DNA of 64,000 nt, taken from NCBI GenBank assembly GCA_001830425.1, contig MIAA01000016.1:164663-228662 (forward strand), read 5' to 3'. A model generated the notes under the pieces. The model was not told the origin of the DNA. It ran no database searches and saw nothing but the letters and a program-made list of their open reading frames with translations. Shown here piece by piece: positions 1,448 to 50,845 of the stretch. Position numbers and translations under genes: made by a program. The stretch is from Rhodospirillales bacterium RIFCSPLOWO2_02_FULL_58_16 (GTDB lineage Bacteria > Pseudomonadota > Alphaproteobacteria > Rhodospirillales > 2-02-FULL-58-16). Numbering within the stretch: position 1 is the stretch's first letter; every line of letters begins with the position of its first letter.

Positions 1448-2499
1448 TATTCATGAGGGCAACGCCCACACTCGGCCGGACATAAACGACCATTGGTCCC
1501 TGAAATCAACTCTTGTTTTTTCATTGCCGCCCGCTCGACCATCCCGGCGAGGCCGTCGATGAATTCCGCCGCAGTCCCCACCGTCGCCACCCTGACATAG
1601 GCCGAGACGCCCCATTCCAGGGCCAATTCGCGGTATTCGATATCCAGTTCGACCAGGGTTTCCGAATGCTCGGAAACAAAAGCGATCGGGACCACGACCA
1701 CAGGCTTTTGCTCGACGGCGGCGCGCTTCAGTTCGTCTGTCGTCGCCGGTCCGATCCACTCCATCGGCCCCACCTTGCTTTGGTAACAGACCACCCGGTC
1801 CAATGCCGGAATATTCAGGGCTTTGACCACGGCTTCGGCGGTGCGCTCCACCTGCCGGGCGTACGGATCGCCCCGTTCAACAACTTTTTTCGGCAGGCCG
1901 TGCGCCGAAAACAGAACCCTCGGTGCGCCGAAGCGGGAAGCTTCCTCGATCCCGGCGAGAACCGGCTTTCTTTGCGCCTCGATAAATCCCGGATCATCCG
2001 GATAGCAGCAGACCGCGTATGTCGGCGCGGCGATGCCGGCGGCGGCGGCGGCCCGGCGCCAGTCCTTCAGCGATGAGCCGGTAGTGGCGGTGGAAAATTG
2101 GGGATAGAGCGGCAAGAGGACAATTTCATCCGGATGGTACGACGCCACCTCGGCGGCGGCCTCGTCGCTGAACGGATGCCAATAGCGCATGGCGATGAAC
2201 ACCCGCGCCTCGCCTTTGGAGCGTAAACGCTCCTCCAGCGCTGCGGCCTGGTTCTTCGTCAGTTCGAGAAGCGGCGAGCGCCCGTTGATCTTTTCATAGA
2301 TCCGGCGCGCCGTCGGCGCTCTTTTGCGTGAAATAAATTCGGCCAGAACCCGGCGTATCGGCTGCGGAGCGCCGATGATCGCCGGATCGTTAAAAAGATT
2401 AAAGAGAAACGGCCTGACGGACTCCGGCCGATCCGGGCCGCCCATGTTGAACAGAACGACAGCCAGTTTCGTCATCCATTTACCGGCTTTTCCACCCAT
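1447..2499 (-). CDS. hemH: ferrochelatase
   Basis: 350-aa [18 protein letters not shown]...[12 protein letters not shown] is the canonical ferrochelatase N-terminus. The true start may be the MTK codon at 2475. Confidence 0.9.
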
Positions 2500-3550
2500 G
2501 GATCAATTCCGCCAATCGCGCCACATTTTCCGGCGGCGTGAATTGTAAAATTCCATGGCCGAGGTTGAAGATGAACGGTCCCTTTGAAAATGTTTCAATA
2601 ATCCGCTTTATTTCCGTTTCCATTTCAACGCCGCCCATGACCAGCAGGTGGTTATCCAGGTTACCCTGCACGGCGCAACGGCTTTGCAGTTCTTTCTTGG
2701 CCCATTGCAGGGGAATTGTGTCATCCAGGCTTACGCCGTCAACGCCGGTTTCATCAACAAAGTCTTTGTAGAGAACCCCGGCGTGGCGGGGAAAGCCGAT
2801 GATCGGTGTCTTCGGATAAACCGATTTAATCCGCCTGACGATTTCAGCGGTCGGTTTGATCACCCAACGATGAAACTGGATTTCGCCGAGAACGCCGGAC
2901 CAACTGTCAAATAATTGAATCGCTTCGGCGCCGTTTTTAATTTGCTCGATTAAATACCCGGCAGTGGCCTCAACCAGTAAATCGATGAGTTTTTGAAAAT
3001 CATCAGGTGACTTATAGGCCCATGTTTTGGCGTTGCCGCAATCGGTTCCGCCACAGCCTTCCACCATGTAAACGGCAACCGTCCACGGCGATCCGGCAAA
3101 TCCGATCAAAGTCGTTTCCTTCGGAATTTCACGGGAAAGACGGTTTACGGTCTCAAACACCGGCGCTAAATGATCGTTCACTCGGTTGATATCAAGCCTA
3201 TTTAACCCTTCGACGGAACGAATAGGTTCAAGCGCCGGGCCTTGCCCTTCGATAAAATTCACCTTCTGCCCCAGGGCGTCGGGTATTACCAGAATATCGC
3301 TGAAAAGAATCGCCGCATCCATATGGTAACGACGCAACGGTTGGAGAGTCACTTCAACGGCAAGATCGGGGGTATAACAAAAATGGAGAAAATCTTTCGC
3401 ATTTTTCCTTATTTCCCGATATTCAGGAAGATAACGACCAGCCTGACGCATCAGCCAGAAAGGCGGACGGGAAAGGACCTCGCCTTTCAAAGCGCGTAAA
3501 AAAAGCTTGTCCGTTTTTTCATCATTGCGACAAAGGGAAACAGGCGACAT
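2480..3550 (-). CDS. hemE: uroporphyrinogen decarboxylase
   Basis: 356 aa. [19 protein letters not shown] and the IGFAGSPWT motif are diagnostic of HemE. Confidence 0.92.
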
Positions 3551-40068: not shown

Positions 40069-40734
40069 ATGAGGTTTGTATTAGCTTTTTCCCTTGGAGT
40101 CGGGTTGGTTGTGATGTCGGCGTCGGCCGGCTTTGCGGACGGCGCCAAGGTTTTCGCCGACAAGGGTTGCGGCGGATGTCATTACACCGACGGTCCCGCC
40201 AAGGAGAAGACGATCGAGGATCAATTGGCGAAGAAAGGCCCCGAGCTTTGGTACGCCGGGTCCAAATTCAAGGGTGAATGGCTGGGCGCGTGGCTCGCCG
40301 ATCCCCAGCCGATTCGTCCGATGAAGTACAATTCCCTGACCGACAAGAATGCCGGGGATCATCCCAAACTCGCCGCCGCCGAAGCGGGCGAAGTCAAGGA
40401 TTTCCTGATGGGCCTGGTTTCGAAGGATGTTCCGGCCGGCGTGGTGACGCCAAAGAGCAACCCCCAGGGCAAACTGATCTTTATCAAGAAGATGCCGTGC
40501 AGCGGTTGTCACAAGTACCAGACCGGCGGAAAGCTCGTCGGCGGGAATACCGGCCCGTCGCTGGTTGACGCCGGGGTCAGGTTGAATCCGGACTGGATTT
40601 TGGCCTATCTGGCCAACGCGCAGGTCTTCAAGCCGGTTAAGGATATGCCTAATTTTGACGGCATCCTCAGCAAGCCGGATATGGAGAAGGTAGCAGCTCA
40701 CGTCGCCTCGTTTACGGCGGCGGACGCCAACTAG
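40069..40734 (+). CDS. dihaem c-type cytochrome
   Basis: 221 aa with a signal peptide, CGGCHY and CSGCHK. Confidence 0.8.
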   Translation: MRFVLAFSLGVGLVVMSASAGFADGAKVFADKGCGGCHYTDGPAKEKTIEDQLAKKGPELWYAGSKFKGEWLGAWLADPQPIRPMKYNSLTDKNAGDHPKLAAAEAGEVKDFLMGLVSKDVPAGVVTPKSNPQGKLIFIKKMPCSGCHKYQTGGKLVGGNTGPSLVDAGVRLNPDWILAYLANAQVFKPVKDMPNFDGILSKPDMEKVAAHVASFTAADAN

Positions 40735-44398: not shown

Positions 44399-45163
44399 AT
44401 GAAAAGACTGATCCAACTTGTCCTTACCGTCTTCGGCGTCTACCTGGGCTTTGTCGTGGTCTTTGACCATCTGCTCGGTCAGGTGATCCCGTCGAGTCTG
44501 CTGCTGATGTACATGTTCTTTGTGTGCGCCGGCGTGTTCATGGTGTTCACCTTCACCGAAGAAAGCATGAACCAACTGACGGCGCCGATCAAGGCGCTGG
44601 TCGAGGACCCGTCCAAGAAAATGGTGCGCAACGTGGTGTTCCTGCTGGTTCCGTTGGCGGTGGGTTATTACACCTACTCCAAGATGGTTCCCAGCTTTGA
44701 GGCTCCGGTGGAGTTGAGGACCATCCATCCGGCGCCGCCGGCGGCGGTGAAGGCTTACGGCAAGCGCTATAACCTGCTGACTCTGGCTAATCCGTTCCGC
44801 AAGCTCAAAAAGGACGACCCGAAAAAGTTCGAGGCTTTGGTCGCCGAGGGCGGCATGGTCTATGTCAAGAATTGCCAGTATTGCCATGGCGACAAACTGG
44901 ACGGTCGCGGGCCGTATGCCGAGGGCCTGAACCCGACGCCGGCCAACTTCCAGGACGTCGGCACCATCGCCCAGCTTCAGGAGGCGTACTTGTTCTGGCG
45001 CATCACCACCGGCGGTCCCGGACTTCCGTCCGAGGCGACGCCGTGGATTTCGGCGATGCCCGTATGGCAGGACTTCCTGAGCGAGGAAGAAGTATGGAAG
45101 GTGATTCTGTATCTTTATGAGTACACCGGCTACAGCCCGAGATCATGGGAAAAAAGTGAGTAA
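44399..45163 (+). CDS. polytopic membrane protein with C-terminal monohaem c domain
   Basis: 254 aa with three N-terminal TM helices. NCQYCHGDKLDGRGP and SAMPVW are present. Confidence 0.75.
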   Translation: MKRLIQLVLTVFGVYLGFVVVFDHLLGQVIPSSLLLMYMFFVCAGVFMVFTFTEESMNQLTAPIKALVEDPSKKMVRNVVFLLVPLAVGYYTYSKMVPSFEAPVELRTIHPAPPAAVKAYGKRYNLLTLANPFRKLKKDDPKKFEALVAEGGMVYVKNCQYCHGDKLDGRGPYAEGLNPTPANFQDVGTIAQLQEAYLFWRITTGGPGLPSEATPWISAMPVWQDFLSEEEVWKVILYLYEYTGYSPRSWEKSE

Positions 45164-45200
45164 GCGGATGATAAGTTTCATGCACAGGGGTGGTAATCCG

Positions 45201-46724
45201 ATGAGGATCGTGGCGCTGACGGCGTTGGGTCTGTTGCTTATGGCGCCGCCGGCGTCAGCCAAGGGAGACAAGGGCAACGGCGAAATCGTCTATAAAAAGC
45301 GGTGCGTGTGGTGCCATGGCGAAGAGGGCGACGGCGCCGGCGCCGGGGGCGAGATGACCAAGATAATTAACCCGCCGCCTCGGGATTTCACGTCGGGCAT
45401 GTTCAAGATCAAGACCTCGCCGTTCGGCTCGGATTTTCCCAATGACGCCGACATCTACCGCATGATCAGCGACGGCATGCCGGGAACGGTGATGCCGGGA
45501 TGGAAGTCGATCCTCAAAGAGCCGGAGATGTGGGACCTGGTGGCCTATATCAAGACCTTCGCCGAACTGGAAGCCGAACCCGGCAAGACGGTGGATTACG
45601 GAACCCAGGTCAAGACCTCTCCCGAAAGCATCGAAAAGGGGTCCAAGCTGTTCCATGACGGTGATCGTTGCTCCGAATGCCACGGCGCCGAGGGCAAGGG
45701 TAACGCCATCAAAGCGCTGAAAGGCGATAACGGCGAGCGCACCTGGCCGAGGAATCTGACCAAGCCGTGGACGTTCCGCGCCTCCAACGATCCCAAGGAA
45801 ATCTTTACCCGCGTTTCGACCGGCATTTCCGGCACCCAGATGCCGTCGTTTGACGATCCCAAGAGCAACAAAAAGTTGACGGTCGAGGAACGCTGGCATG
45901 TCGCCAACTACGTCAACTCGCTGGCCAAGACCGACAAGACGGTGAAGGCCGAGAACACGGTGGTCAAGGCCGACAAGGTCGCCGGCGACCTGCCCGCCGA
46001 TACCGCTGATCCGGCGTGGGACAAACCGACGCCCTCGACTTTCCTGCTGGTGCCGCAGGTTATCTACAAGGATCGCGTTTTCTCGTCGGCCAACGACACC
46101 ATCACGGCCCGCGCCATGTTTAACGACAAGGAAGTGGCCATCCTGCTGGAATGGGACGACCGCACCAAAAGCATTCCCGGCGACAAGGACGCCGTCAAGA
46201 TCGCCAATCCCGAAATGGGACCGGATCGGGTGGCCGTGCAGTTGCCGATCGCCATCCCGGAAGGCATGAAAAAGCCCTACTTCATCAAGGGCGATACCGC
46301 CAACCCGGTTAATCTGTGGTCGTGGAGTTCGGGAACCGCCGAGGCTGCGGAAAGCGTCGGCCTCGGCAACGGAACCGGCGTTGACGCCGTCGAAGAACGT
46401 GACGCGGCGGCAGTCGGCCTGACCGCCAAGGGCGTCTACAAGGACGGCACCTGGCGGGTGATGATGAAACGCCCGCTGACCGCAGGCAACGCGGAGACCG
46501 ACATTCAGTTCCAGGAAGGCCGCTTTATTCCCATCGCTTTCCAGAGTTGGGACGGATCGAGCAGCGAAATCGGAAGCAAGCACACGCTGACCACATGGTA
46601 CTGGATTCTGCTGAAACCGGCCTCCAGCAACAAACCGCTGATTGTCGGCCTGATTCTGGCCTTGTTGGTGTTCGCCGCCGAAATAATGTGGGCGCGTTCA
46701 GCCGGTAAAAACAAAGACGCTTAA
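45201..46724 (+). CDS. dihaem cytochrome c fused to an EB_dh (type II DMSO-reductase gamma-subunit-like haem b) domain and C-terminal TM anchor
   Basis: CVWCHGEEGDG and CSECHGAEGKG are followed by ARAMFNDKEVAILLEWDD...DRVAVQLPIAI...WRVMMKRPL...IAFQSWDGS, which is typical of ethylbenzene-dehydrogenase/NxrC-like haem-b domains. The track ORF begins at 45117. Confidence 0.65.
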   Translation: MRIVALTALGLLLMAPPASAKGDKGNGEIVYKKRCVWCHGEEGDGAGAGGEMTKIINPPPRDFTSGMFKIKTSPFGSDFPNDADIYRMISDGMPGTVMPGWKSILKEPEMWDLVAYIKTFAELEAEPGKTVDYGTQVKTSPESIEKGSKLFHDGDRCSECHGAEGKGNAIKALKGDNGERTWPRNLTKPWTFRASNDPKEIFTRVSTGISGTQMPSFDDPKSNKKLTVEERWHVANYVNSLAKTDKTVKAENTVVKADKVAGDLPADTADPAWDKPTPSTFLLVPQVIYKDRVFSSANDTITARAMFNDKEVAILLEWDDRTKSIPGDKDAVKIANPEMGPDRVAVQLPIAIPEGMKKPYFIKGDTANPVNLWSWSSGTAEAAESVGLGNGTGVDAVEERDAAAVGLTAKGVYKDGTWRVMMKRPLTAGNAETDIQFQEGRFIPIAFQSWDGSSSEIGSKHTLTTWYWILLKPASSNKPLIVGLILALLVFAAEIMWARSAGKNKDA

Positions 46725-46726
46725 GC

Positions 46727-48187
46727 ATGGCCATAGCGCCGCAGGCTTCTTTTGTCGAGGCGCCGCCGGAGGACGAGTCCGGTCGGTTCAAACGCATTCT
46801 GGTGGCGTTGGACGCTTCCGACCATGCCGACCGGGCGCTGGCGGAGGCGCTGAGGCTGGTCAATACGTCCGATGGCGTCATCATCGGCATCCATGCCTAC
46901 GCCGCTAAACTTCATGACCGTCGCTTCCGCCAGATGGAAGGCGGTCTGCCGGAGCGCTATCTCGAAGAACAGGAGATGGAGCGCCAGCGCGAGGTTCATG
47001 ACAGCCTGATCACCCGTGGCCTTGACATCATCAGCGACAGTTATCACGACGCCGCCGAACGTTCCTGCAAGGAAGCCGGCCGGCCTTACCAACGCCTCAG
47101 CCCGGAAGGAAAGAATTACCGGCGGATTGTGGAAGCCGTGGAAAACGGCGACTACAGCCTTTTGGCGCTCGGCGCCCTGGGCCTGGGCGGCATTCCGGGC
47201 AGCGTGATCGGCTCCGTCTGTGAGCGGGTGGTCCGGCGCAGCGCCATTGATGTGTTGGTCATCCGCGATCCGGAAAGGGCTATCGGCGACGGCCCCGTCG
47301 TCGTCGGCGTGGACGGCTCGGCGCAGTCCTTCGGGGCGCTGAAAACCGGCTTTGCGATCAGCCGTCGGCTGGGGATTCCGCTTCACGCGGTGGCGGCTTA
47401 CGATCCTTATTACCATTATGTGGCCTTCAACAAGATCGCCGGCGTGCTCAGCGACGAGGCCGGCAAGGTGTTCCGCTTCAAGGAGCAGGAAAAACTTCAC
47501 GAGGAGCTTATCGACGACGGCCTCGCCAAGATTTATCAGGCGCATCTGGAAGTCGCCCGCGTCATGGCCGAGGAAGAAGGCGTTAAACTTACCCTTGAAT
47601 TGCTTGACGGCAAGCCGTACCGGGCGATTGCCGATTACCTGGGAAAAGTCGGGGCAAGCCTGCTGATAATCGGCAAGATCGGCATTCACGCCGATTCCTA
47701 CCTTGATATCGGCGGCAACGCCGAGAACCTGCTGCGGACGGCGCCCTGCCATGTATGGCTCGGGCGGACGACTTATGTCCCGCCGCTGGACGTAGTCGCC
47801 GAGGAAACCATGACCTGGAGCAACGAAGCCGAAGAGATGCTCAACCGGGCGCCGGAATTCGCTCGCGGCATGGCGCGCACGGCGGTGATGAGGCTGGCCC
47901 AGGACAGCGGCCACACCTTCATTACCAGGAGCATGGTGGAAGAGGTCGCCAAAAAATTAATGCCGGGAGGCGGCGGCGGAAAGTGTCCTTATTCAGGCCA
48001 AGACAAGGAGAAGGCAAAGCAGGAACTTACCTGGACCGATGAGGCGACGGCTCTGGTCGAGGGGCTGAATGACAAGGCCCTGGCCGGCAATATCCGCCTG
48101 CGCGCTGAAAAGTCGGCCCATCGCGAGGGGAGGGAGAAAGTAAAGGCCGTTGATGTCCTGAAGTTTCTTGACGGCGGCGGGGAATAG
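46727..48187 (+). CDS. tandem universal-stress-protein domains fused to two PCP_red-like domains
   Basis: 486 aa with two USP modules (ILVALDASDHADRAL...; VVVGVDGSAQS...). Two repeats follow of the type W..EAE..L.R.P.F.R......V (MTWSNEAEEMLNRAPEFARGMART; LTWTDEATALVEGL), as in the BchB/ChlB C-terminal domain. Confidence 0.6.
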   Translation: MAIAPQASFVEAPPEDESGRFKRILVALDASDHADRALAEALRLVNTSDGVIIGIHAYAAKLHDRRFRQMEGGLPERYLEEQEMERQREVHDSLITRGLDIISDSYHDAAERSCKEAGRPYQRLSPEGKNYRRIVEAVENGDYSLLALGALGLGGIPGSVIGSVCERVVRRSAIDVLVIRDPERAIGDGPVVVGVDGSAQSFGALKTGFAISRRLGIPLHAVAAYDPYYHYVAFNKIAGVLSDEAGKVFRFKEQEKLHEELIDDGLAKIYQAHLEVARVMAEEEGVKLTLELLDGKPYRAIADYLGKVGASLLIIGKIGIHADSYLDIGGNAENLLRTAPCHVWLGRTTYVPPLDVVAEETMTWSNEAEEMLNRAPEFARGMARTAVMRLAQDSGHTFITRSMVEEVAKKLMPGGGGGKCPYSGQDKEKAKQELTWTDEATALVEGLNDKALAGNIRLRAEKSAHREGREKVKAVDVLKFLDGGGE

Positions 48188-48192
48188 AGGCC

Positions 48193-49470
48193 GTGGCGAC
48201 CGCAAAACATCCTTTTCTGGTGGCCCTGAACCTGACGCGGCGCTGTAACCTGAATTGCGGCCATTGCTATCTCGACGCCGGCGTCCGCAGGCGCGGCGAT
48301 AATGAACTTTCCACCGCCGAGGTGAAGGCGGTTCTTGACGGCATCGCCTCGTTGAGCGACGAAACCATGGTCGTGTTGACCGGCGGCGAGCCGATGATGC
48401 GGGCCGATGTTCCTGAACTGGCCCGTCACGCCCATAGCCTGGGCCTGATGGCGGTGGTGGGAACCAACGGCACGATGCTGGATGACGGGCGGGTGGCGGA
48501 GCTGAAAGAATCGGGGGTGCAGGGCGTCGGGGTCAGCCTGGATTCTCTCAATCCCGGGCATCATGACGCTTTTCGCGGCCTGTCCGGCGCCTGGGACAAG
48601 ACGATGGCGTCCATCGAAGCCTGCCGGCGCGGCGGCCTCGGGTTTCAGATTCATTTTTCGGTCACCGACGACAACGCCGACGAACTGGACGATATGATCG
48701 CCTTCGCCAAGTCGTCCGGCGCGTTGGTTCTGAATGTCTTTTTTCTGGTATGCACCGGACGCGGCGAGAAGGCGACCAATATCTCCCATGATGTCTACGA
48801 GCGGGTTCTGAGAAAGGTCACCAGGGCCGCTCATGATGAACAGGAATTGATCGTGCGGGCCAAATGCGCTCCGCACTTCAAGCGCATGGCGATGGAACTG
48901 GACCCGGCATGGCCGATTACCCTGGCCCACGGCTATGAGGCGGGAGGATGTCTGGCCGGAACCCGCTATTGCCGGGTCACGCCGGAAGGCGAAGTAACGC
49001 CCTGTCCCTATATGGAGAACTCCGCCGGCTCCGTCCGCGACCGGGGTTTCGCCGAAATATGGCGCAATGCGCCGCTGTTCAAGGCGCTGCGGACGCCGAA
49101 GCTGGAGGGCCGCTGCGGGAAATGCGAGTATATGAAAATTTGCGGCGGCTGCCGGGCGCGTCCCCAGGCGCGGAGCGGCGGGCTTATGGAGGAGGACTTC
49201 CTGTGCGACTACCAACCAAAAGGCGGCGCGGTGATCGAGCCGCAGCAGGAGGGGGCGGCGGCGCTTCCGTGGTCTGTGGAGGCCGAGGCGCGGTTGAAAA
49301 GGGCGCCTTCCTTCCTGCGCCGGATGATCCGCAAGCGCACCGAGGACTACGCCCGCGACAACGGACATGCTATGGTGACCGTTGACGATATGCAAAAGCT
49401 GATGAAGCGGCGTTTCGGAAATGCCGGGCCGCGTATGAAAATACCGGGGAGGACGGGCGTTGACGGTTGA
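48193..49470 (+). CDS. radical SAM/SPASM enzyme of the NirJ/AhbC/AhbD type with C-terminal PCP_red-like domain
   Basis: CNLNCGHCY cluster motif, LTGGEP, VFFLVCTGRG, and the C-terminal Cys cluster CGKCEYMKICGGCRAR are present. These are followed by LPWSVEAEARLKRAPSFLRRMIRKRTEDYA. Confidence 0.7.
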   Translation: MATAKHPFLVALNLTRRCNLNCGHCYLDAGVRRRGDNELSTAEVKAVLDGIASLSDETMVVLTGGEPMMRADVPELARHAHSLGLMAVVGTNGTMLDDGRVAELKESGVQGVGVSLDSLNPGHHDAFRGLSGAWDKTMASIEACRRGGLGFQIHFSVTDDNADELDDMIAFAKSSGALVLNVFFLVCTGRGEKATNISHDVYERVLRKVTRAAHDEQELIVRAKCAPHFKRMAMELDPAWPITLAHGYEAGGCLAGTRYCRVTPEGEVTPCPYMENSAGSVRDRGFAEIWRNAPLFKALRTPKLEGRCGKCEYMKICGGCRARPQARSGGLMEEDFLCDYQPKGGAVIEPQQEGAAALPWSVEAEARLKRAPSFLRRMIRKRTEDYARDNGHAMVTVDDMQKLMKRRFGNAGPRMKIPGRTGVDG

Positions 49471-50845
49471 TGCGGCGATTATCGGAGGAGGCATCTCCGG
49501 GCTGGCCTGCGCCTGGGACCTGAAGCGTCGCGGCCGGCGGGTGGTGGTGCTGGAGCGCCAGGCCGATCCCGGCGGCAGCGCCTGTTCGGAGCGCCTCGGC
49601 GGCGGCTTCCTGATGGAGCACGGGCCGAGCACGGTCAACGCCGGTTCCGACATCGCCAATGATTTCTCCGGGATGCTTGGGCTTAACGGCGAACGCTGCA
49701 ACCTCGGCGGCGGCGTGCGGCGGCGCTATCTGGTCGGCGGCGGCGTCCTTCGCGGCCTGTCGGTAAGTTCCATGGGCTTTTTCCTTTCCGGATACATGTC
49801 CCTTAGGGGAAAGCTGCGTCTGCTCGGCGAGTTTGCGGTTCCCGCCGCCGCCGACGGCAAGGAAGAAACGGTGGCGGAGTTCTGCGTTCGCCGGTTCGGC
49901 CCGGAGTTTCTGGAACGGATTATTGATCCCATGGTCGCCGGCATTTATGCCGGACGCGCCGACGAGCTTTCCGTCTCCGCCGTGTTTCCCAAGCTGGTCG
50001 AACTGGAGCAGAAGTACGGCGCCGTTTCACGCGGGTTGCTGCGCCGTCACAAGCGCGGCGTCAGGATGCCGAGCAGCCGTCTGTTTTCCTGGCAGGACGG
50101 CATTGCTTCTCTTCCCCGCGCCCTCGCCGCCGACCTCGGCGAGGCGGTGCGCGCCGGGATCACGGTGCGCGGGCTTCAGGCGGTTTCCGGCGGATTCAAG
50201 GTGGATGCGGGTCCGGCGGGGGCGTTCGCCGCAAGGTCGGTGATTATCGCCACCCAGCCTCATGTGGCGGCGCGGCTGCTGGAAGGCGTCGACAATGACG
50301 CCGCCTGCGCCGCCGGAGAAATTGACGCGCCGCCGTTGGCCGTAGCCTTTTTCGGCTTTGAACGCCGGCAGGTGGATCATCCGCTTGACGGCCTCGGCTT
50401 CCTGACGTCCCGCAAGGAAGGGCGCTCGTTGAGCGGCGCTCAATTTTGCTCCACCATGTTTCCCGGACGCGCCCCGGAGGGACATGTCGGCGTCGCCGGA
50501 TATCTCGGCGGCGCCAGGTCGCCGGAACTGGCGAGACTGCCGAGAGAGGAACTGCTCGATCTGGCGCTCGAAGATTTCCGCAAGCTGATCGGCGTCAAGG
50601 GAGAGCCTGTGGTTGCCCAGGTGCGGCACTGGCCGCTGGGCCTGCCGCAATACAGGATCGGCCACCAGGAGCGCACGACTTGTCTGAAAAATGCCGGTCA
50701 GCGCCGGCCCGGCCTGTTCGTTACCGGAAATTATTTTCACGGCCCCTCGGTCGCCTCCTGTTTGGCCATGTCGAGGGAAACCGCCTCCGGCGTTCACGGC
50801 TTTCTTGACGAAATCCGGCCCGCCGACCGGAGCGCGGTATTATAA
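49460..50845 (+). CDS. hemY: HemY-type FAD-dependent protoporphyrinogen/coproporphyrinogen oxidase
   Basis: 461 aa. It has the AAIIGGGISGLACAW dinucleotide fold and PGLFVTGNYFHGPSV at the C-terminus. Confidence 0.75.
   Translation: MTVDAAIIGGGISGLACAWDLKRRGRRVVVLERQADPGGSACSERLGGGFLMEHGPSTVNAGSDIANDFSGMLGLNGERCNLGGGVRRRYLVGGGVLRGLSVSSMGFFLSGYMSLRGKLRLLGEFAVPAAADGKEETVAEFCVRRFGPEFLERIIDPMVAGIYAGRADELSVSAVFPKLVELEQKYGAVSRGLLRRHKRGVRMPSSRLFSWQDGIASLPRALAADLGEAVRAGITVRGLQAVSGGFKVDAGPAGAFAARSVIIATQPHVAARLLEGVDNDAACAAGEIDAPPLAVAFFGFERRQVDHPLDGLGFLTSRKEGRSLSGAQFCSTMFPGRAPEGHVGVAGYLGGARSPELARLPREELLDLALEDFRKLIGVKGEPVVAQVRHWPLGLPQYRIGHQERTTCLKNAGQRRPGLFVTGNYFHGPSVASCLAMSRETASGVHGFLDEIRPADRSAVL

Follow-up and report, generated by a model that had tools for sequence, protein, structure and literature searches.

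The 64,000-nucleotide (nt) stretch of Rhodospirillales bacterium RIFCSPLOWO2_02_FULL_58_16 that was analysed here (contig MIAA01000016.1, positions 164,663 to 228,662; hereafter the window) contains, directly 3′ of a bd-like oxidase operon, three adjacent plus-strand genes at 46727–48187, 48193–49470 and 49460–50845. They encode a USP protein with PCP_red repeats, a radical SAM enzyme related to AhbD, and a HemY-type porphyrinogen oxidase. We propose, with a probability of roughly 45%, that the radical SAM enzyme is the vinyl-forming decarboxylase of a late-haem line dedicated to the bd-like cytochrome complex, and that the PCP_red/USP protein is a tetrapyrrole carrier. The three genes would then form one accessory late-haem cassette dedicated to the complex with which they are co-inherited. 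The radical SAM enzyme would convert the two propionates of rings A and B into vinyl groups by an oxidative decarboxylation of the AhbD/HemN type, HemY would oxidize the porphyrinogen ring, and iron would be inserted by the single housekeeping ferrochelatase. The PCP_red 'lids' on the enzyme and on the USP protein would hold a labile intermediate or product and then hand it on. The coupling of the genes, the family placements, the co-inheritance, the missing genes and the marker residues are directly seen; from them we infer which reaction is catalyzed, that the USP protein is a carrier, and in which order the steps occur.

Gene layout and co-inheritance with the bd-like oxidase

The features to which the text refers are the following (window coordinates, strand in brackets):

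45117–46724 (+): terminal gene of the bd-like (OR-N2-type) oxidase operon, encoding an EB_dh haem-b domain joined to a dihaem cytochrome c
46727–48187 (+): USP-USP-PCP_red(×2) protein, 486 amino acids (aa), P0001; Pfam Usp ×2, PCP_red
47816–47944 (+): PCP_red domain 1 of the USP protein, residues 364–406 (PF08369, 46.2 bits, E 4.6e-12)
47984–47989 (+): Cys-Pro dipeptide C420-P421 ('GKCPYSG') in the Gly-rich inter-repeat linker of the USP protein
48023–48175 (+): degenerate PCP_red domain 2 of the USP protein, residues ~433–483 (custom repeat hidden Markov model, HMM)
48193–49470 (+): AhbD-family radical SAM/SPASM enzyme with C-terminal PCP_red, 425 aa, P0002
49270–49398 (+): PCP_red domain of the radical SAM enzyme, residues 360–402 (PF08369, 58.7 bits)
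49460–50845 (+): HemY-type flavin adenine dinucleotide (FAD) porphyrinogen oxidase, PgoX-like by its marker residues, 461 aa, P0003
587–3550 (−): housekeeping late-haem genes hemJ (587–1033), hemH (1447–2499) and hemE (2480–3550)

When the junctions were read, the coordinates that a first-pass annotation of the window had given for the three genes proved exact. The TAA stop codon of the EB_dh gene, whose product matches Pfam EB_dh with 81.9 bits and Cytochrom_C twice, ends at 46724 and the ATG of the USP gene is at 46727, in agreement with the 2-nt gap described there. The stop codon of the USP gene (48187) and the GTG start of the radical SAM gene (48193) are 5 nt apart, and the reported overlap of the radical SAM and HemY genes measures 11 nt, with the TGA ending at 49470 and a TTG start at 49460. 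The cassette is directly followed by rplM, rpsI and argC. The G+C content at third codon positions of its three genes is 0.75–0.76, the same as in the neighboring core genes, and a compositional island was rejected on that basis. The earlier description of the genes as a 'second, island-borne set' does not hold for this reason, and also no second hemE or hemH is present. Promoter and terminator scans gave nothing above the shuffled background, and a search for FNR boxes returned 3 matches in the window, which does not exceed chance (1.8 expected), with none of them upstream of the operon. The sole FNR-box-like site near the operon is located at 40474–40487 (CTGATCTTTATCAA, one mismatch), inside the first cytochrome c gene.

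The distribution of the cassette was analyzed in 151 evenly sampled genomes of the order. Twelve of them encode the USP protein, the radical SAM enzyme and the bd-like CydA homologue together; the other 139 have none of the three, with the exception of one radical SAM/HemY fragment at a contig end (G095). Cassette-type HemY (>50% identity) occurs in those 12 genomes, two fragmented ones and the G095 fragment. The proposed link between the tetrapyrrole module and the oxidase is thus supported both physically and phyletically, and the CydA-like complex encoded by OR-N2 'bd-like' oxidase operons (Murali, Gennis & Hemp) is the constant companion of the cassette. The text on OR-N oxidases is silent on radical SAM, haem-biosynthesis and USP genes (bioRxiv 10.1101/2021.01.16.426971). 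No published description of the cassette was found in the literature, and searches for PCP_red, or for 'bd-like' together with haem synthase, radical SAM or PgoX, returned nothing relevant. C2:51090–51986, within a 1074-aa open frame, encodes a second paralogue of the bd-like CydA (51% identity across residues 200–505). In relatives, the equivalent paralogue and the OR-N2 gene share a contig, with the paralogue ~7 kb upstream, whereas here it is on another contig.

The complete trio was found in ~25 species-level genomes, comprising Rhodospirillales-like and Hyphomicrobiales metagenome-assembled genomes (MAGs) and a betaproteobacterial MAG. It is mostly located directly 3′ of the bd-like operon, with the overlap of the radical SAM and HemY genes conserved. 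One betaproteobacterial MAG (G174) carries two complete, divergent trios (L109 on contig C126 and L041 on contig C341), which are ~41% and ~51% identical to the present one, and a third HemY elsewhere. In the groundwater MAG locus L099:906–9284, the place of the bd-like oxidase ahead of the trio is taken by a lactonase/nos_propeller-type protein and a cytochrome c. Distant members keep the pair of USP and radical SAM genes, even where HemY is absent. Their neighbors are a lactonase/NosZ-like gene with a cytochrome c and HemY, a Crp/Fnr regulator with a stand-alone PCP_red protein, or a CBS protein, and one distant member (L107) adjoins a ChdC-family gene.

These data bear on the possibility that the three genes are mere neighbors without a common pathway, i.e. 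a USP stress or redox regulator, an unrelated SPASM enzyme and a spare PgoX. USP proteins are generic and the promoter and terminator scans are uninformative, which would fit such an explanation. However, the gene order and the overlaps are conserved across at least three bacterial classes, the USP and radical SAM genes stay paired in the absence of HemY, and their products share a rare domain, PCP_red, which has no other copy in this genome. We therefore consider a chance neighborhood very improbable.

The radical SAM enzyme and the PCP_red domains

P0002 contains the Pfam domains Radical_SAM, SPASM and PCP_red, and the motifs CNLNCGHCY and FFLVCTGRG that had been noted in it are both present. 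Among NCBIfam models it scores highest with those of AhbD and NirJ2 (TIGR04545 and TIGR04055; 315.7 and 316.3 bits), although it stays under their 500-bit cut-offs. The scores are 186 bits for NirJ, 181 bits for AhbC and at most 139 bits for peptide maturases, and other PCP_red-bearing relatives reach 277–298 bits on the AhbD/NirJ2 models. The HMM assignment thus groups the enzyme with AhbD/NirJ2 and not with the peptide-modifying maturases, the outcome by which the first-pass annotation would have been refuted, and a role as a peptide maturase was ruled out by these scores (316 versus ≤139 bits). The CX3CX2C motif (C18-x3-C22-x2-C25) and the SAM-binding GGE motif (G64-G65-E66) are invariant in 32 orthologues, as are the cluster cysteines except for C260 (≥90% conserved). 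The C-terminal motif is CX2CX5CX2CX17C in AhbD and CX2CX5CX20-21C in NirJ (PMC10114771), and the auxiliary-cluster motif of P0002 (C308-x2-C311-x5-C317-x2-C320-x17-C338) corresponds exactly to the AhbD form.

Relatives of the enzyme were drawn from 1.8 billion representative sequences. About 25 full-length clusters (50% identity) likewise end in PCP_red, and the relatives at 35–42% identity are canonical AhbD/NirJ2 proteins, many of them AhbD-AhbAB fusions; one relative that passes the NirJ2 cut-off is 42% identical. A quick IQ-TREE phylogeny of 111 catalytic cores groups all 23 PCP_red-bearing sequences in one clade of 27 members, which is separated from 84 other AhbD, NirJ2 and NirJ sequences by a branch with a Shimodaira-Hasegawa-like approximate likelihood ratio test (SH-aLRT) support of 99, and AhbD-AhbAB fusions are among the neighbors of P0002 in the tree. 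Foldseek searches with an AlphaFold2 model gave only generic SPASM radical SAM matches; no AhbD structure is known. On these sequence comparisons, P0002 is a diverged member of the AhbD family, closest to AhbD/NirJ2, in a separate PCP_red clade. It has the CX3CX2C and CX2CX5CX2CX17C motifs and the SPASM architecture in common with AhbD/NirJ2. It differs from them in its lower score, in its separate clade, in the presence of one to three C-terminal PCP_red domains in enzymes of its type, and in the constant pairing with a USP-PCP_red protein without AhbA, AhbB or AhbC partners. In one genome, the cassette-type enzyme coexists with a near-canonical AhbD. Several fusions were observed among the relatives (P0189, P0192, P0193, P0204, P0178, P0167, P0145), including AhbD-like radical SAM enzymes joined to a sirohaem decarboxylase (NirDL HTH and AsnC_trans_reg2 ×2), a tandem double radical SAM protein, and a PCP_red-clade radical SAM enzyme with a histidine-kinase ATPase domain.

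The first-pass annotation had also suggested a haem d or d1-like product. An identity as NirJ was rejected by the score of 186 bits, below the TIGR04051 cut-off of 515 bits, and a role in haem d1 synthesis because a true NirJ (611 bits) with a NirDLGH-type cluster is present on another contig. The latter, at C36:17449–21480, is a canonical haem d1 cluster in which NirJ is followed by three AhbA/AhbB-like (NirDLGH-type) sirohaem decarboxylase genes, and it adjoins a propeller protein with weak similarity to L-NosZ. AhbC, with which AhbD works together with AhbA/B in the sirohaem-dependent route, was not found in the genome. Production of another modified haem for the bd-like oxidase is possible.

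The repeat at the C-termini had been likened to a domain of protochlorophyllide reductase, and the PF08369 scores and a three-helix domain in the AlphaFold2 model confirm that it is PCP_red. The Pfam gathering cut-off of 32.5 bits is exceeded by the copy in the radical SAM enzyme (58.7 bits) and by repeat 1 of the USP protein (46.2 bits), whereas repeat 2 of the latter, taken alone, remains below it (12.6 bits, E 0.15). The earlier count of three PCP_red-like domains is thus correct in terms of homology, but only two of them pass the threshold here. Repeat 2 of the USP orthologue from a relative scores 21.5 bits, and that relative has five PCP_red stretches (155.8 bits). The AlphaFold2 model of the radical SAM enzyme has a predicted local distance difference test score (pLDDT) of 73 and a predicted template modelling score of 0.77; the three helices span residues 362–408 with a pLDDT of 84–92. 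The PCP_red sequence of the enzyme matches the isolated BchB domain (PDB 2KRU) with an E-value of 2e-7. PCP_red caps the bound tetrapyrrole in DPOR. The domain described here is of the same sequence family as that of BchB/ChlB, above the cut-off, and has the same three-helix fold. However, here it forms the C-terminal part of a radical SAM enzyme and a tandem array on a USP protein, in a non-phototroph.

The two Usp domains of P0001 are recognized by Pfam with 122 bits. The G-x2-G-x9-G-[ST] nucleotide-binding motif is present in USP1 of 26 of 26 orthologues, and USP2 contains the variant G-x2-G-x9-G-G-N (G-S-N in L043). The protein thereby has the motif of the ATP-binding (UspFG) class and is a putative ATP binder. 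Among relatives, the number of PCP_red repeats per USP protein varies from one to five. The two repeats in this genome are the shortest array among the alphaproteobacterial copies, and the 486 residues compare with 550–725 aa and three to five repeats in relatives. In a Nitrospirae MAG, the additional repeats are on the radical SAM enzyme instead (three, with one on the USP protein); L093:7744–9906 served for comparison with the present USP gene. A Cys-Pro dipeptide in a Gly-rich inter-repeat linker is present in 25 of 27 USP orthologues (L018–L041, L093). It reads 'RFCP[DEH]RGG' where it follows repeat 1 and 'FVCPFA' where it separates repeats 3 and 4. In its similarity to haem-regulatory motifs, it may be a haem ligand. 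We regard the USP-PCP_red protein as a putative ATP-binding tetrapyrrole carrier or scaffold.

HemY, ferrochelatase and the haem pathway of the genome

P0003 matches Pfam Amino_oxidase and NCBIfam TIGR00562 (232.7 bits, cut-off 97.85) and contains the FAD-binding GxGxxG motif (GGGISG, residues 9–14). Its nearest solved structure is Myxococcus xanthus PgoX (2IVD, 230 bits; Bacillus subtilis CgoX, 3I6D, 162 bits). According to a 2023 analysis (PMC10740692), the MxPgoX residues R95, F329 and L332 are invariable among PgoX, whereas every CgoX has small residues there; R364 of BsCgoX is in turn conserved in CgoX, and PgoX has Thr or Ser at that position. The corresponding residues of P0003 are R89, L312, L315 and A346. 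In all 25 cassette HemYs, the equivalents of R95 and L332 are kept and that of R364 is Ala, Ser or Thr, never Arg. By these published markers, the cassette HemY is PgoX-like and not CgoX-like as the first-pass annotation had assumed. It differs from M. xanthus PgoX in having Leu at the position equivalent to F329 and in the translational coupling of its gene to an AhbD-like gene.

The first-pass annotation had considered a coproporphyrin-type route, for which cpfC and chdC would be searched in the genome. Neither is present: no PF06778 (ChdC) match was found in this genome, which is 100% complete by marker genes, and its only ferrochelatase is more similar to PpfC (human 162 bits, yeast 129 bits) than to CpfC entries (≤97 bits). 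Exactly one ferrochelatase was found in each of 20 of the 21 Rhodospirillales genomes tested, with or without the cassette, so no cassette genome was found to have an extra one. A simple coproporphyrin route is doubtful because HemY is PgoX-like and the only ferrochelatase is of the protoporphyrin type.

A coproporphyrin-dependent branch could nevertheless be envisaged in which HemY acts as CgoX, the ferrochelatase produces coprohaem and the radical SAM enzyme replaces ChdC. The placement of the enzyme in the AhbD family, the lack of ChdC here and the ChdC-family gene next to a distant member would be in line with it. AhbD homologues occur in organisms with the coproporphyrin-dependent pathway that have no other Ahb enzymes, where they may replace ChdC anaerobically (PMC13564367, PMC10114771); such a replacement was proposed for some anaerobic Gram-positive bacteria. 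HemQ and AhbD are, in turn, largely absent from Proteobacteria (PMC5095920). Given the PgoX-type residues in 25 of 25 cassette HemYs, and a single ferrochelatase in 20 genomes that is PpfC-like and not CpfC-like in this one, we consider such a branch improbable.

The presence of hemJ, hemH and hemE at the start of the window, as first annotated, was confirmed. The inventory of late-haem genes in the genome comprises one hemE, one ferrochelatase, one hemJ, the cassette HemY and one HemW (291 bits). HemF and a true HemN were not found in the genome, and the protoporphyrin branch, which had been described as already encoded, is therefore incomplete. In three relatives from three genera, hemN adjoins a conserved gene. 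The orthologue of this gene is located here at C32:52559–53471, and the expected hemN junction is contiguous and holds other genes; a tblastn search of the genome with the HemN of a relative returned only HemW. The hemN-adjoining gene itself is interrupted by a 39-N scaffold gap (C32:52838–52877, region C32:51481–53471). With hemN, hemF and chdC all missing, the vinyl groups of haem would come from the cassette alone in this genome.

Order of steps and role of the cassette

The evidence from this genome favors the order coproporphyrinogen, radical SAM enzyme, HemY, HemH, because HemY is of the PgoX type, HemH is of the PpfC type and the radical SAM and HemY genes are coupled. This sequence of steps is likewise in line with the arrangement of the genes and with their translational coupling. 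What is known of the AhbD family would favor the alternative order HemY, HemH, radical SAM enzyme, with coprohaem as the substrate. The ChdC-family neighbor of the distant clade member places it in a haem context, which we count in support of the decarboxylase proposal.

Several observations weigh against this proposal. A HemN match is present in all 11 other cassette genomes of the order sample. Among the 26 genomes of the collected loci, 23 have one, which exceeds the family cut-off in 21 and is a contig-end fragment in two; of the three without it, two have HemF. For the 38 cassette genomes together, these numbers are 34 with HemN (32 above the cut-off) and two more with HemF, so that 36 carry one or the other. 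The cassette is therefore normally an add-on that would be indispensable in the present genome only, and a general replacement of HemN/HemF by it was rejected. The absence of hemN here could be an assembly gap, as the scaffolds contain short runs of N. The Nitrospirae MAG has AhbAB, an AhbC-like gene and a near-canonical AhbD (493 bits), and yet it also encodes the USP protein together with a PCP_red radical SAM enzyme, next to an EB_dh gene; no true HemE, HemY, HemN, HemF or ChdC was found in it. The role thus seems to differ from bulk haem b synthesis, and a porphyrinogen is an unlikely substrate in that organism. The coprohaem order would require CgoX and CpfC, but HemY has PgoX markers and the ferrochelatase is PpfC-like. 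The porphyrinogen order is without precedent, as the AhbD family is known only with iron tetrapyrroles, and the mechanism proposed for AhbD uses the iron of the substrate in electron transfer (PMC10114771). The Nitrospirae MAG, the ChdC neighbor and the AhbD precedent favor a tetrapyrrole substrate that contains iron, or else an action of the enzyme downstream of haem b.

In the latter case, the radical SAM enzyme would act after haem b, either by tailoring haem into a modified cofactor for the bd-like or EB_dh complex or as a HemW-like chaperone derived from AhbD. The USP-PCP_red protein would be a device for storing haem and handing it over, and HemY would be an extra PgoX that raises the supply of protoporphyrin. 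Next to the pair is an enzyme that acts shortly before haem b is formed (PgoX-type HemY in Proteobacteria and a ChdC-family protein in L107), and there is no such neighbor in the Ahb-only Nitrospirae genome, which already has AhbD. The addition of the cassette to complete haem pathways in 36 of 38 genomes, its strict co-occurrence with one respiratory complex, the Cys-Pro kept in the linkers and the multiple lid domains would also be explained. HemW shows that a radical SAM enzyme of haem synthesis can turn into a protein that hands haem to respiratory enzymes, although it is derived from HemN, not AhbD, and has neither PCP_red nor a USP partner. However, this genome would then be left without an enzyme for the conversion of coproporphyrinogen to protoporphyrinogen, and no known haem derivative needs AhbD-type chemistry on haem b. 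The conservation of all catalytic and cluster residues also speaks against it, although HemW, too, keeps its cluster. On balance, we regard an action after haem b as rather unlikely, but as the main rival of the decarboxylase proposal.

Somewhat bolder, and held here only tentatively, is the idea that the PCP_red clade represents a branch of the AhbD family with a new function, either a new class of oxygen-independent coproporphyrinogen dehydrogenase or a haem tailoring enzyme or insertase. In the first form, it may be a third, unrecognized class of dehydrogenase that feeds PgoX directly. The proposed net chemistry would be that of CgdH (HemN), which is missing from this genome, and the position in the pathway would also be the same, before a PgoX; in contrast, there is no homology to CgdH beyond the radical SAM core, and most cassette genomes have kept a true HemN. 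In the second form, the enzyme may build, together with the multi-lid USP carrier, the active-site haem of the OR-N 'bd-like' oxidases.

OR-N 'bd-like' oxidases are widespread in nitrite oxidizers and low-oxygen Proteobacteria, and to our knowledge they have no measured function and no known cofactor set. A cassette that is co-inherited with them offers a genetic handle on their maturation. It also extends the AhbD family by a PCP_red-tagged branch and places the 'lid' domain of a chlorophyll enzyme in haem metabolism. The genome described here is a natural background without hemN and hemF in which the role of the radical SAM enzyme can be addressed, and the dehydrogenase form of the new-branch idea, if true, would explain how a free-living alphaproteobacterium can have neither of these genes.

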